Source: an uncultured Prevotella sp. (GTDB lineage Bacteria; Bacteroidota; Bacteroidia; Bacteroidales; Bacteroidaceae). From it: DNA of 38,764 nt. The stretch covers positions 1 through 38,764 of the forward strand of contig CAMTJK010000001.1 of NCBI GenBank assembly GCA_947072805.1, read 5' to 3'. This document shows, piece after piece, positions 265 to 38,764 of this stretch. Numbering within the stretch: the first letter of the stretch is position 1; each line of letters opens with the position of its first letter. Both the position numbers and the translations under genes were made by a program. The notes under the pieces were generated by a model. That model saw only the letters and a program-made list of their open reading frames with translations, had not been told where the DNA came from and made no database searches.

Positions 265-715
265 GGGCTCGTAACTGTACTTAATGAAAGTTAATTTGTA
301 AAGATATTTGGTCGAATTTAACATTTTTAAATTCCGCATTCTAGGTGTAAATATTTGTTAATCAAAGTGGGCCGATTTATGCTCCCGACGGGTCGAAAAA
401 CGATCCCAGTTTTTTGGCAACGCGATTACGTCGTAATGACATCGCCATTACGTCGAAATCGCATTGCGATTTCGACGTAACGGCGATGCGATAAAAGCTA
501 TATCGCAATGAGCTCACGTACGTAACGGCAAACCGATGAAATGGTATTAAATCGCAAAACGCGTAACTTACTGATAATCAGCGCTTCCTATTTGAGGTGA
601 AAAACGCTCATTTTCGCGTCGTAGGTTAGAAATCGAGGTTTGGATGCCGATTAACACACGTTAAAGTCAAGATTTTTCATAAAAGTAAATAAATGTTATA
701 CGTGTTTTACCATTA
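265..715 (+). mobile_element. ~450-bp non-coding dispersed element (MITE-like), copy 1
   Basis: Near-identical to the reverse complement of 23986..24439 and to 38372..38764. It starts GGGCTCGTAAC and is conserved to TGTTATACGT (703), with a shared ACCATTA ending at 715. Confidence 0.85.
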
Positions 716-21395: not shown

Positions 21396-21653
21396 GAACA
21401 CGTATTCATTCCTGCCACCCTGCAATGGGGACATAGACAAGAATACAAGGTTGAAATAAAACGTGAATAAGAAGAAACAGACATTAAAGGTAAACAGAAA
21501 CGCGGGCGGGATATCAGAGCCAAAGGCTTACTGACTCCCAATGAGAGAAAACAAGCATGAGGCACAAGCCTCAAAATCATTAACTCGGCGTTTCCGTTCT
21601 GAAAACTTGATAAAGGACATTATATAAAATATTGAGCTTTTAGTTCTTGTTCT

Positions 21654-21780
21654 CTTCTACAAGAATACCGCCAAAATTCAACGCATGAGGACAAGCAGAC
21701 TGAAAGTTCACGCTCGTTGGGCGTGGACTATTCTGTGCTTGTTATGCGTATAGGTCACTTGGCGGTAACCTTTGTAGAAG
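21654..21780 (+). ncRNA. Long multi-stem RNA hairpin in the 5' leader of the peptide/pilin cassette
   Basis: Nested pairs cttctacaa/ttgtagaag, taccgccaa/ttggcggta, acgcat/atgcgt, acaagca/tgcttgt and agttcacgctc/gggcgtggact (with G-U pairs). Confidence 0.7.
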
Positions 21781-21824
21781 GCAGGCAAAAGAATGGTTGC
21801 ACGCCTATTTTTTATTCTACAATA

Positions 21825-21956
21825 ATGAAAGAAATCAAAAAGAGACAATATGTGAAGCCTCAAATGGCTATTTATAATGTTGATAGTCCGCAACTATTAG
21901 CTGGGAGTGGCAATGGTGAGACAGAAAGACTGAACGAAGAAGATTACGAGTGGTAA
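21825..21956 (+). CDS. 43-aa peptide MKEIKKRQYVKPQMAIYNVDSPQLLAGSGNGETERLNEEDYEW
   Basis: ATG at 21825 in AT-rich context. The YxKP...LLAGS pattern is typical of small Bacteroidales peptides upstream of lipoproteins. Confidence 0.75.
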   Translation: MKEIKKRQYVKPQMAIYNVDSPQLLAGSGNGETERLNEEDYEW

Positions 21957-21977: not shown

Positions 21978-23516
21978 ATGAAAAAGTATATACAATCAGT
22001 GATGGCTCTTGTAACCGTCATGTCATTTGCTTCATGTTCGTCAGATGACAACGAGACCATTGACAACACAGGCAACACCAAGGTGATGTCGTTCACCGCC
22101 ACACAGGAAGGAACGGGCACACGCGCGGCAATCAACCCGCATGACAAGACGGAGATTGTTTGGGAGGAAGGAGACAAGATAAGTGTGATTACAGGTCATT
22201 ATCCAGCTACGTTTACATTGCGCGAGGGTGCAGGCACTGCCTCCGCAAAGTTTGAGGGCTCGACAATGTCAGCAAATTCTTATTTGGCTGTCTATCCATA
22301 TATCGATAATTACGATGTGCTATATTCTGAAGACTATATAGATAGGATTACGTTTCCAGCCAATCAGACCGCCACACCTAATGGCTTTGACAAGAATGCG
22401 GCATTTATGATGGCACAAAGCGAGAACACCACGTTGAATTTCAAGAATGCCGTGGGTTATATTAAAGTGACGCCACTGTTTGATTGCAGCAAGATAGAGT
22501 TGAAAGCAGCAAACGAGACTTATGCATTGGCTGGTACTGGAACACTCAGTTATAATTATGGAGAACCTTCAATCTATATTTCAAATAGTGCCACAGACAA
22601 GTCATATACCATCACGCTCAACGGTAATATCGAATCCGGCAATACATATTATATCGCCGTTCCCTCTGTAACCCTCACCGCAGGATGGACCCTCTCCTTC
22701 ACCACATCTGACGGCAGCAAGGTTTATACACGCAAGGGAAACAAAGAAATATGGATTAAGCGCAATACAGTAATCAATCTTGGAAAGTTTGCTACCGATG
22801 GTAATTATGGGAATGATGAAGCTAGAGGCATCGTAAGAGCCGATCAGGAGGTAGATATGGGACTGACTATTACGAAAGACGGCAAGAACTACAAGATCAT
22901 CTTCGCCAAGAGCAACCTCACGGCAACAGGTCTTGCAGAGAACGAATCCGACTTTGGCGATTATTTTGCCTGGGGAGCGTTAGAGCCTTGGTATACAAGT
23001 ATTACTACCACGTCCTCATCTGTTACCGTCAATGCATGGAAAGACGACAAATCCGAAGGTTATTCATACGGGAATTGCCCATCTTATGGCAATAATTCTT
23101 ATGTAGAGAATGATGTTTTGAAGATAGATTATGATGCTGCCCGCCAGGTTCTTGGCGGCGACTGGCAGTTGCCTACTAAAGAGATATGGAAGGCATTGTC
23201 AGATGCCAATAAGACTTCGGTGTATTGGGGAGCTGATGGAGAAAAGGAACTCGAATATATTGATGGTATTCAAGGTATGAAGATAACCAAGAAAGAAGAC
23301 AACTCCACTTACCTTTTCTTGCCTGCTGCTGGTTTCCTCATAAACACGAGCTCCAACAATATAGGTTCCTACGGCTACTATCGGTCGGGTACAGCCTACT
23401 CGGATACGTATGCGTATTGCTTGGACTTCTGCACTGGTAACTTCTATCCTCAGAGCCTCTACCAACGTTTCTATGGATGTCCCATCCGCCCCGTGCGCTT
23501 AGTCCCAGTTGAATAA
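21978..23516 (+). CDS. Type V pilin/fimbrillin-like lipoprotein with a C-terminal C-type-lectin-like (DGR-target-like) domain
   Basis: Lipobox FASC; GTR followed by W-x-x-GD-x-I-x-V; C-terminal domain VDMGL...GDYFAWG...DAA...GGDWQLPT...FLPAAG...G.Y.S...R..G.PIRPV. Confidence 0.78.
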   Translation: MKKYIQSVMALVTVMSFASCSSDDNETIDNTGNTKVMSFTATQEGTGTRAAINPHDKTEIVWEEGDKISVITGHYPATFTLREGAGTASAKFEGSTMSANSYLAVYPYIDNYDVLYSEDYIDRITFPANQTATPNGFDKNAAFMMAQSENTTLNFKNAVGYIKVTPLFDCSKIELKAANETYALAGTGTLSYNYGEPSIYISNSATDKSYTITLNGNIESGNTYYIAVPSVTLTAGWTLSFTTSDGSKVYTRKGNKEIWIKRNTVINLGKFATDGNYGNDEARGIVRADQEVDMGLTITKDGKNYKIIFAKSNLTATGLAENESDFGDYFAWGALEPWYTSITTTSSSVTVNAWKDDKSEGYSYGNCPSYGNNSYVENDVLKIDYDAARQVLGGDWQLPTKEIWKALSDANKTSVYWGADGEKELEYIDGIQGMKITKKEDNSTYLFLPAAGFLINTSSNNIGSYGYYRSGTAYSDTYAYCLDFCTGNFYPQSLYQRFYGCPIRPVRLVPVE

Positions 23517-23526
23517 CACACACAAC

Positions 23527-23580
23527 AAAGCATTTCGTGCTGGTCCGCATTCCGCAGGTCAGCACGAATTGTTTTTATTT
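23527..23580. terminator. Hairpin between the convergent pilin and HTH genes (likely intrinsic terminator)
   Basis: ttcgtgctg (23534-42) pairs with cagcacgaa (23560-68), followed by a T-rich tract. Confidence 0.65.
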
Positions 23581-23943
23581 CAATCTTTGTTGTCTCTGTT
23601 GCCAGAGTTTATCTATCTCCTGACGGTGTTCGTCCTCGTCCGAGTAGAGCCATTCGATGTAGTCGGCTCGCTGTGAGGTGTGGTCATCCAGCCGAGAGAA
23701 ATCACGGAGATGGACGACATACTTCTCCTCGATGGTCCTCAGCCTTGGTGACAGCAACCTCTTGATGTCAGAGAAAGCATAACGTTTACGTCTGCCCGCC
23801 TTGGCGGCTCTCAGATAACCAGCCTTGTCCCATGCCCAAAGGGTGGTAGTGCAGACATCGCACATCTTGCATGCTTCCTCCGTGGACAGCTTTTTCCCCT
23901 CAACGGCTGCCTGCTCCAGTCTCATCAGTTTGTGTTCATTCAT
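23575..23943 (-). CDS. MerR/excisionase-like HTH DNA-binding protein; 5' end interrupted by the repeat element (original ATG at 24454)
   Basis: LSTEEACKMCDVCTTTLWAWDKAGYLRAAKAGRRKRY is an HTH_17/MerR-like pattern. Confidence 0.72.
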   Translation of the reverse strand: MNEHKLMRLEQAAVEGKKLSTEEACKMCDVCTTTLWAWDKAGYLRAAKAGRRKRYAFSDIKRLLSPRLRTIEEKYVVHLRDFSRLDDHTSQRADYIEWLYSDEDEHRQEIDKLWQQRQQRLK

Positions 23944-23985: not shown

Positions 23986-24439
23986 TAATGGTGATTTGAT
24001 ACGTATAACATTTATTTACTTTTATGAAAAATCTTGACTTTAACGTGTGTTAATAGGCACCCAAACCTCGGTTTGAAACCTACGACGCGAAAATGAGCGC
24101 TTTTCATCTAAAATAGGGAGCGCTGATAGTCAGAAAGTTACGTGTTTTGCGATCTAATACCATTTCATCGGTTTACGATTACGTACGTGAGCTCATTGCG
24201 ATATAGCTTTTATCGCATCGTCGTTACGTCGAAATCGCATTGCGATTTCATCGTAATGGCGATGCCAATACGACGTAATCGCGTTGCCAAAAAACTGGGA
24301 TCGTTTTTCGACCCATCGGGACCATAATTCGACCCACTTTCATTAACAAATATTTACACCTAGAATGCCGAATTTAAAAATGTTAAATTCGACCAAATAT
24401 CTTTACAAATTAACTTTCATTAAGTGCAGTTACGAGCCC
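23986..24439 (-). mobile_element. ~450-bp non-coding dispersed element, copy 2, flanked by the 9-bp duplication GCCATTTCT
   Basis: Reverse complement of 265..715; GCCATTTCT at 23977-85 and 24440-48. Confidence 0.88.
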
Positions 24440-24462
24440 GCCATTTCTCGACATAGTGTACT

Positions 24463-24735
24463 ATGCCTTCGCCGAAGCAGTTGCAATCCGGCACACCGAT
24501 AGACGAAACAGATATGGAACCTAATGACCTTTTGGGCTTAAAAAAACTGCAACGTACGGTGAACAGCACAAAACTGCTCATGACGTATAGCACTGCATCC
24601 TCATATCTTGAGGTGCTCACGGCGCAGCAGACACTACTGCAGGCGGAACTGACTGAGGTTAAGGAGATACAGGCTTGCCTGCAGGGCATGACGGCATTAT
24701 ATCGTGCTATGGGTGATATTTTTATCCGGCTGTAA
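24463..24735 (+). pseudogene. C-terminal remnant of a TolC/OprM-family efflux outer-membrane protein
   Basis: STKLLMTYSTASSYLEVLTAQQTLLQAEL...ALYRAMG matches the OEP C-terminal YLEVLxAQ...LYxALGG pattern; the rest of the gene is absent. Confidence 0.75.
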
Positions 24736-38371: not shown

Positions 38372-38764
38372 GCTCGTAACTGCACTTAATGAAAGTTAAT
38401 TTGTAAAGATATTTGGTCGAATTTAACATTTTTAAATCCGGTATTCTAGGTGTAAATATTTGTTAATGAAAGTGGGCCGATTTATGCTCCCGACGGGTCG
38501 AAAAACGATCCCAGTTTTTTGGCAACGCGATTACGTCGTAATGACATCGCCATTACGATGAAATCGCATTGCGATTTCGACGTAACGGCGATGCGATAAA
38601 AGCTATATCGCAATGAGCTCACGTACGTAATGGCAAACCGATGAAATGGTATTAAATCGCAAAACGCGTAACTCGCTGACTATCAGCGCTCCCTATTTGA
38701 GATGAAAAACGCTCATTTTCGCGTCGTAGGTTTCAAATCGAGGTTTGGGTGCCGATTAACACAC
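38372..38764 (+). mobile_element. ~450-bp non-coding dispersed element, copy 3 (truncated by the window end)
   Basis: GCTCGTAACTGCAC...GATTAACACAC is colinear with 267..659. Confidence 0.85.

Follow-up and report, generated by a model that had tools for sequence, protein, structure and literature searches.

A high-copy intergenic repeat with mosaic, mutually avoiding copies in a gut Prevotella genome

What kind of sequence is repeated three times, in both orientations, along a single contig of an uncultured Prevotella, and how does it spread? The window analysed here (38,764 nucleotides) is the entire contig C1 of an assembly of 2.65 Mb in 240 contigs (90% complete), and the sequencing runs containing this region are mostly labelled pig gut. 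The original prediction of three copies of one element was confirmed, with pairwise identities of 93-97%. Positions 265-703 (copy 1) and 24439-24001 (copy 2) form a gap-free alignment of 439 nt with 93% identity; that of copies 2 and 3 is likewise gap-free, with 94% identity over 402 nt, while copies 1 and 3 share 97% over 300 nt. Between 271 and 702 conservation is almost complete, and it declines across 265-270 and 703-713. The window had been thought to end inside copy 3 at an assembly break; indeed, the repeat is found at 228 of the 480 contig ends. The window start (1-75) falls inside another repeat, with CAAAGATA/TATCTTTGCA ends, which is also present at 12 contig ends. The distances between inverted copies, proposed to be about 23 and 14 kb, measure 23,297 and 13,916 nt. 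The GC skew has the same sign on either side of copy 2 and thus gives no sign of inversion. Inversions between copies stay plausible, since PMC4755523 reports some inversions or translocations between copies of PINSR, a 188-bp intergenic Prevotella repeat described there as devoid of terminal inverted repeats (TIRs) and present in 177-184 copies. Elsewhere in the window, high summed depth in four runs at 21500-21900 and 23510-23710 suggests further repeats; these peaks surround a 512-aa ORF (no Pfam match, weak FISUMP match) and an HTH_17 gene that adjoins copy 2.

The positions of the copies and of their parts are as follows.

265 to 270 and 703 to 713: shoulders of copy 1, with partial conservation only
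271 to 702, + strand: conserved core of copy 1, right-end type A
271 to 294, + strand: left extension, specific to the window species, starting with GTAACT
295 to 305, + strand: left box TTTGTAAAGAT, matching the TGT-starting left edge of the Xylanibacter rodentium element
418 to 560, + strand: central palindromic array with a 22-bp period (autocorrelation 0.49 at 22 and 0.37 at 11)
564 to 580, + strand: IHF-like box YAA-N4-YTGA, half of a YAAC-N4-TGA-N3-TCA dyad; the box itself is placed at 564 to 576
651 to 667, + strand: TTAAC-N4-GTTAA-AGT site, with a spacer that differs between species; TTAAC-N4-GTTAA itself is 651 to 664
24002 to 24433, - strand: complete core of copy 2, type A
24437 to 24542, - strand: relic of an older repeat family (approximate limits), outside the element and directly adjoining copy 2 at its left end
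38376 to 38764, + strand: copy 3, truncated by the contig end, its last position corresponding to window 659

The element is thus organized as a left box, a 22-bp-phased palindromic array, an IHF-like site and, 86-88 nt further on (87 nt in the window), the TTAAC-N4-GTTAA site. An imperfect version of the latter, perfect in some alleles, lies in the left extension at 281-294. Genome-wide, TTAAC-N4-GTTAA occurs 105 times, with all but one or two occurrences falling within the element, and each other spacer length from 0 to 15 is seen at most twice. A near-perfect hairpin occupies 440-488 inside the array, whose length varies across the genome in steps of 22, being 87 nt in nine copies, 65 nt in one and 43 nt in three. 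In three runs, contigs join opposite strands at this hairpin (440-489), and such joints fit array variants with part of the palindrome flipped. Indels are nearly absent from the 35 standard-length copies. GTAAAGAT stands at both element ends in direct orientation, and no inverted arms link the two ends.

The YAA-N4-YTGA box is present in 60/60, 54/54, 23/29 and 15/15 copies of the sets compared, being the best of several offsets in species other than the window species and X. rodentium. It matches the E. coli IHF consensus, as checked in PMC9452768, in relaxed form only; the strict consensus is found in 0/60 copies here, 7/54 in X. rodentium and 9/15 PINSR copies. Five DNABII-family matches occur in the genome, and no AA/TT periodicity at 10-11 bp was detected in the element. 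The same box was also seen in unrelated small repeats of other species (L018, L019, L020, L023, L025 and L026) and, within the L018-L026 set, beside a permease-like cassette.

The suspicion that the genomic copy number is large proved correct. Probes for the two ends gave 117 left and 126 right matches genome-wide, and at least 120 nt of flank accompanies 104 left and 123 right ends (81 of type A and 42 of type B). With more than 100 ends of each side, the possibility that only these few copies exist can be set aside; we estimate about 110-125 copies, or some 2% of the genome, of which only five are complete and contig-internal in the assembly. In three pig-gut DNA runs, the summed contig depth over the element exceeded that of the flank by factors of tens to hundreds, a measure that is consistent with high copy and is not itself a copy number. 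The element is intergenic and non-coding: by simple ORF calling, none of 107 left ends and one doubtful case among 125 right ends overlap an ORF. Its ends face gene starts more frequently than gene ends (147/231, p=4e-5), and copies show no replication-strand polarity in this genome when orientation is compared with GC skew (85/155, p=0.26).

The sites of copies 1 and 2 are both occupied in other runs, and among the joints listed for 7 DNA runs none skips either copy, although contigs cannot show absence. Five clean loose flanks were compared, four of them by eye and one by script, and each corresponds to an occupied site in this genome. Flanks, runs and sampled genomes revealed no empty site. 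The search in sister species gave a best DNA match to the uvrA region of 72-74% among 400 genomes, indicating that no close sister is present among them; a search in relatives of G417 likewise revealed none close. Judged by eye from the flanks, some sites are common to G274, G362 and G238. Contigs C200 and C202 are near-identical (99.98% over 4.7 kb), reflecting either assembly redundancy or two strains. Two further multi-copy elements break contigs in this assembly: one with AACCCAAATCGGCC ends, in about 14 copies (ends of C138, C176, C180, C206, C207 and C117), and one with GGGTCAGCGG ends, of which eight were found (C61, C74, C93, C199, C220 and C221).

The element was next compared with other genomes. 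BLAST gives partial matches only, in 15 of the 400 further genomes sampled from the genus, reaching 77-78% over the right arm, and the TTAAC-N4-GTTAAAGTAAA motif is present in 6 of 401 genomes (84, 40, 10, 8, 4 and 1 matches, the single one being chance). The scaffold is present in four other species of the 400 genomes sampled, plus X. rodentium; the distance from the IHF-like box to TTAAC is 86-88 nt in five species, and their arrays differ. Since the TTAAC motif was the search key, its conservation follows by construction, whereas that of the spacing does not. A scan of named genomes gave, among the matches listed, several Prevotella MAGs and Xylanibacter rodentium PROD, and the named records carrying the motif were, again among the matches listed, Prevotella or Xylanibacter. 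X. rodentium has 61 motif matches, 60 of which were analysed as loci, and a profile of its 43 standard-length copies detects all three window copies (E 1e-28 to 1e-19). Metagenome scans returned no full-length match and one relative; a first search pattern over genome contigs gave no match, nor did the element match plasmid and phage collections. Matches in viral contigs were chance only, and loci L134, L146, L153, L162 and L100 were also judged chance matches. As anticipated, no Rfam family could be assigned: the window, its positions 1-1150 and four related loci give weak hairpin or AT-rich matches far below gathering. Likewise, no IS- or MITE-type ends were seen on the element.

The copies are mosaics of one another. 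In this genome, where cores lie about 4-6% from consensus, common variants more than 15 nt apart have a mean r2 of 0.01-0.03 in either arm; linkage decays with distance in the right arm (permutation p=0.0002) and not detectably in the left (p=0.35). Alleles carried by at least five copies account for 710 of 885 variant bases, and multi-base blocks are fully linked internally (286/288, r2=1) and free of other blocks within 54 nt of unique flank. Most ends here are contig ends, and the assembly could mix alleles beyond about 55 nt. Such mixing is unlikely in X. rodentium, because its copies are contig-internal and 79% alike; among 43 of them, r2 declines from 0.21 and, past 40 nt, has reached the 1/n floor of 0.03. 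For this linkage test, 6 of the 60 loci were dropped for an unmatched left anchor, as were 11 of the remaining 54 that did not score as standard-length, five of which are likely mis-anchored standard copies. Pairs of X. rodentium copies jump from about 70% to 90-97% identity within the element and share 30-150 nt of flank, and in C200/C202 an element end is joined directly to 131 nt that duplicate the C152 flank at 97.7% identity. Collectively, these data fit neither a clonal burst, expected to leave linkage at all distances, nor a star burst, expected to leave mostly singletons, and point to ectopic gene conversion. Conversion accounts for the uniformity of the copies, not by itself for their first spread or their spacing.

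Neighbouring copies also avoid each other, and neither this property nor the mosaicism has an earlier description that we could find in the literature searched. Contigs with the element at both ends span 5.6-28.8 kb (CV 0.49), only 3 of 58 being shorter than 6 kb, and simulated random choice among intergenic sites places 37-38% below this length. Contigs with the element at neither end are exponentially distributed (CV 1.02), with 34 of 71 below 6 kb; C1, C2, C12, C15 and C17 were left out of the spacing count. None of 32 gaps in X. rodentium is below 11.5 kb, against 9.1 expected. For PINSR, the published coordinates on chromosome 1 of OMA14 give one gap below 3 kb against 17.4 expected under uniform placement, a null that ignores gene lengths; the exclusion there is weaker, 3-4 kb. 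Binning loss of short repeat-bounded contigs may add to the spacing here, and not in the X. rodentium isolate. The idea that the spacing arises through loss of close direct pairs by deletion is unsupported, since direct pairs amount to 16/29 in the short half and 9/29 in the long half.

Over-dispersion in three data sets (this genome, X. rodentium and PINSR in OMA14) is what might be expected of host chromosome-organising sites, comparable with matS, parS or BIME, that are selected at near-regular intervals and only homogenised by conversion. The existence of sites common to strains (by eye also in G274, G362 and G238) and the near absence of indels among the 35 standard-length copies argue for such a role. 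On the other hand, the motif is restricted to 6/401 genomes, one of them by chance, copies number from fewer than 15 to more than 100, orientation is unbiased relative to GC skew (85/155, p=0.26), and the minimum distance differs by species (about 3, 6 and 11 kb). Furthermore, part of the spacing signal could stem from binning loss here and from the PINSR null, which takes no account of gene lengths. We therefore consider selected host sites a possible, rather doubtful explanation.

The ends of the element carry no sign of a target-site duplication (TSD). In this genome, 104 x 81 unpaired ends compared at k=5-10, a search blind to duplications of 2-4 bp, gave at best 3 matches at k=8, and in X. 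rodentium none was found at k=2-8 in 54 complete paired copies. Copy 2 is flanked by a 9-bp direct repeat, at offsets found in no other copy. An element-free homologue near the junction was obtained for 31/104 left and 20/123 right flanks, several of them weak; these homologues stop 0-3 nt from the core in some cases, copy 2 included, and about 25-28 nt from it in others. Older repeats are enriched in left flanks (23/85 vs 30/467, p=2e-7) and not in right flanks (7/82, p=0.47). The relic at 24437-24542 belongs to an older family, 70-80% alike, with more than 20 other sites in this genome (21 element-free homologues). The right flank of copy 2 shows no clear continuation of this repeat, a mismatch that would be compatible with a deletion at entry, with copies having exchanged afterwards or with a mis-join. 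In run X12, differences affect 5/15 nt in the right shoulder of copy 1, compared with 13/276 further out (p=0.001). Further old repeat families fill many flanks in this genome. An unassembled IS-like element starting with GTAACTACTCAG, which we take to be IS66-like, lies at the ends of C13, C15, C27, C35, C44, C59, C156 and C220; four of these ends are inside repeat arms and one or two at left-shoulder-like sites.

The repeat could also be envisaged as an ancient MITE (TG...CA ends) belonging to a DDE transposase, its TIRs and TSDs having been eroded by mutation and conversion, with target immunity as the source of the spacing. PINSR ends form an 8-of-9 inverted repeat, the left edge of the X. 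rodentium element is sharp at TGT, and the GTAACTACTCAG-ended element shares six bases with the left end of the repeat and has 4/8 of its own ends inside it. Yet no TIR is present here, and no TSD exists in either species despite cores only about 4-6% from consensus. The 60 X. rodentium loci include no long autonomous version either, nor is an IS66 transposase assembled here, bearing in mind that the assembly is 90% complete and that multi-copy IS bodies would be unassembled. Overall, an eroded MITE seems unlikely to us.

None of the enzymes searched for follows the element in its distribution. Neither IS66, Y1 transposase nor RT was detected in this 90% complete assembly, a search that unassembled multi-copy IS bodies would escape. 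Among carriers, Y1 occurs in 3/5 and RT in 4/5; Y1 is absent from this genome (G000), G238 and the complete G166, and RT from this genome and G106. Iterons of 22 bp, an IHF site and AT-rich arms resemble iteron origins and att sites. By this analogy, the repeat might be a replication origin or att site, orphaned from an integrative or mobilisable element and amplified in trans by a helicase or a tyrosine recombinase. Tyrosine recombinases are found in all carriers tested, and the HTH_17 gene adjoins copy 2. Against this origin, 36 integrase loci (1 match) show no enrichment of the box over 38 controls, a VapE-like helicase is absent in G000, G417, G106 and G238 with only G166 having it, and plasmid and phage collections hold no copy, viral-contig matches being chance only; we judge it highly improbable. 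A tyrosine-recombinase core within the element was likewise rejected, with no integrase enrichment and no paper found for the lambda core motif, and a resemblance to Xer dif was dropped, its spacer presumably being too short. In passing, C222:96-3361 carries three consecutive tyrosine recombinase genes, presumably RIT-like. Finally, a structured non-coding RNA or a repeat mobilised by RAYT or RT is scarcely credible, for although one strand folds better than shuffles (z -3.0 as RNA, -3.7 as DNA) and more ends face gene starts than gene ends (147/231), the 35-copy consensus fold is weak (-14.6 kcal/mol, covariation -0.8) with a single two-sided change in 5/39 pairs, Rfam gives no match, copies take both orientations relative to flanking genes, and Y1 and RT are missing from the genomes named above.

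The reading that we prefer, with a probability of about one half, is a non-coding, PINSR-type docking element for proteins, spread and homogenised by ectopic, recombination-type copying and not by cut-and-paste transposition. The element is intergenic, keeps the order and spacing of its motifs, is mosaic, has co-copied flanks and no TSD, and avoids its neighbours; we infer in addition protein binding, the initiation of breaks and exclusion between copies. The IHF-like box, the 22-bp array and the TTAAC-N4-GTTAA site would together form a dock of fixed geometry, bound by a bender of the IHF/HU type and by other proteins. Where the complex or the hairpin-prone array causes a fork to stall or a break to form, repair would draw on another copy and thereby shuffle variants in short tracts. 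Occasionally a tract could extend beyond the element and be resolved in DNA of weak or no similarity, in many cases relics of older repeats; the resulting copy would be ragged at its ends and lack a duplication. Neighbours would in turn be held several kb apart, either because a site is occupied or because close pairs are selected against. No mobilising enzyme or binding protein was identified among the families searched, and the birth of a copy was never observed, since no empty site was seen.

These results tie PINSR to longer repeats of gut Prevotella and name three candidate binding sites. Short-tract mosaicism and minimum spacing are two new measurable properties. All of these points are testable in cultured X. 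rodentium PROD, and in practice the repeat offers a species-specific PCR target. If the spacing reflects protein-mediated exclusion or a nucleoid function, it would represent a new mode of repeat spread or chromosome organization in a dominant gut genus. More speculatively, and we would sooner doubt this than accept it, Prevotella may carry a superfamily of gene-less nucleoprotein platforms of locked geometry (PINSR included) that spread from breaks by recombination, leave no transposase footprint and have an array re-coded per lineage; such self-spacing elements, of a new kind, might partition the nucleoid into domains of about 10 kb.

How does the element compare with known systems? The BIME-1/RIP and REP-RAYT systems of E. 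coli are intergenic palindromic mosaics with an IHF site. The present element differs from them in lacking GTAG-tagged REP units of 35-40 bp and in having a much longer unit; furthermore, it has no co-occurring Y1 transposase, its copies avoid each other, and it shows no preference for convergent gene ends. BrickBuilt of Porphyromonas gingivalis, as described in PMC4596501, is a MITE with 12-bp IS5-type TIRs, short TSDs and a filled/empty pair, present in 19 copies with 1-23 freely varying 23-nt units. Both are species-limited, intergenic, composed of a leader, a tandem array and a tail, and hosted by Bacteroidales, whereas the element here has no TIRs or TSDs, an array of nearly fixed length and more than 100 copies.

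The closest known system is PINSR, whose source and function are left open by the authors in the accessible part of PMC4755523. We recovered PINSR copies with the published primer and used 15 for a profile, leaving out the truncated L254. Like the window element, PINSR is intergenic, non-coding, present in more than 100 copies per genome and mostly fixed between strains. Read on the other strand, it starts with TTTGTAAAGA in 13/15 copies, as does the left box of the window element, the first 10 bases of TTTGTAAAGAT being present in the same proportion; a 22-bp palindromic array (autocorrelation 0.62) and then an IHF-like box follow, in the order seen here. The recovered copies (L255-L269) bear the 8-of-9 terminal inverted repeat, TGTAAAGAT / TGTAAATAT, where the accessible text of PMC4755523 reports none. 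In other respects the two diverge: PINSR measures 188 bp against 432 bp and has neither TTAAC-N4-GTTAA (0/15) nor the long right arm; the host of the window element is a deep-branching gut lineage. Mosaicism, spacing and an IHF-like site are not mentioned for PINSR in the accessible part of PMC4755523. The PINSR profile has no direct match in the window (E 0.64 and 0.96), and the PINSR-F primer gives 0 matches at 3 mismatches in the window genome; the sampled genus does contain genomes matching the primer. In X. rodentium, the profile gives 66 matches, all on the element, against 1 for a reversed control. Since the X. rodentium family cross-matches both, a kinship of scaffold with PINSR is indicated. 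The description of the repeat as uncharacterised accordingly holds for its sequence, which is in none of the libraries searched, and not for its scaffold, which it has in common with PINSR. To judge from sequence comparison, the window element and PINSR appear to share one scaffold without belonging to one sequence family, the X. rodentium family forming the link between them.
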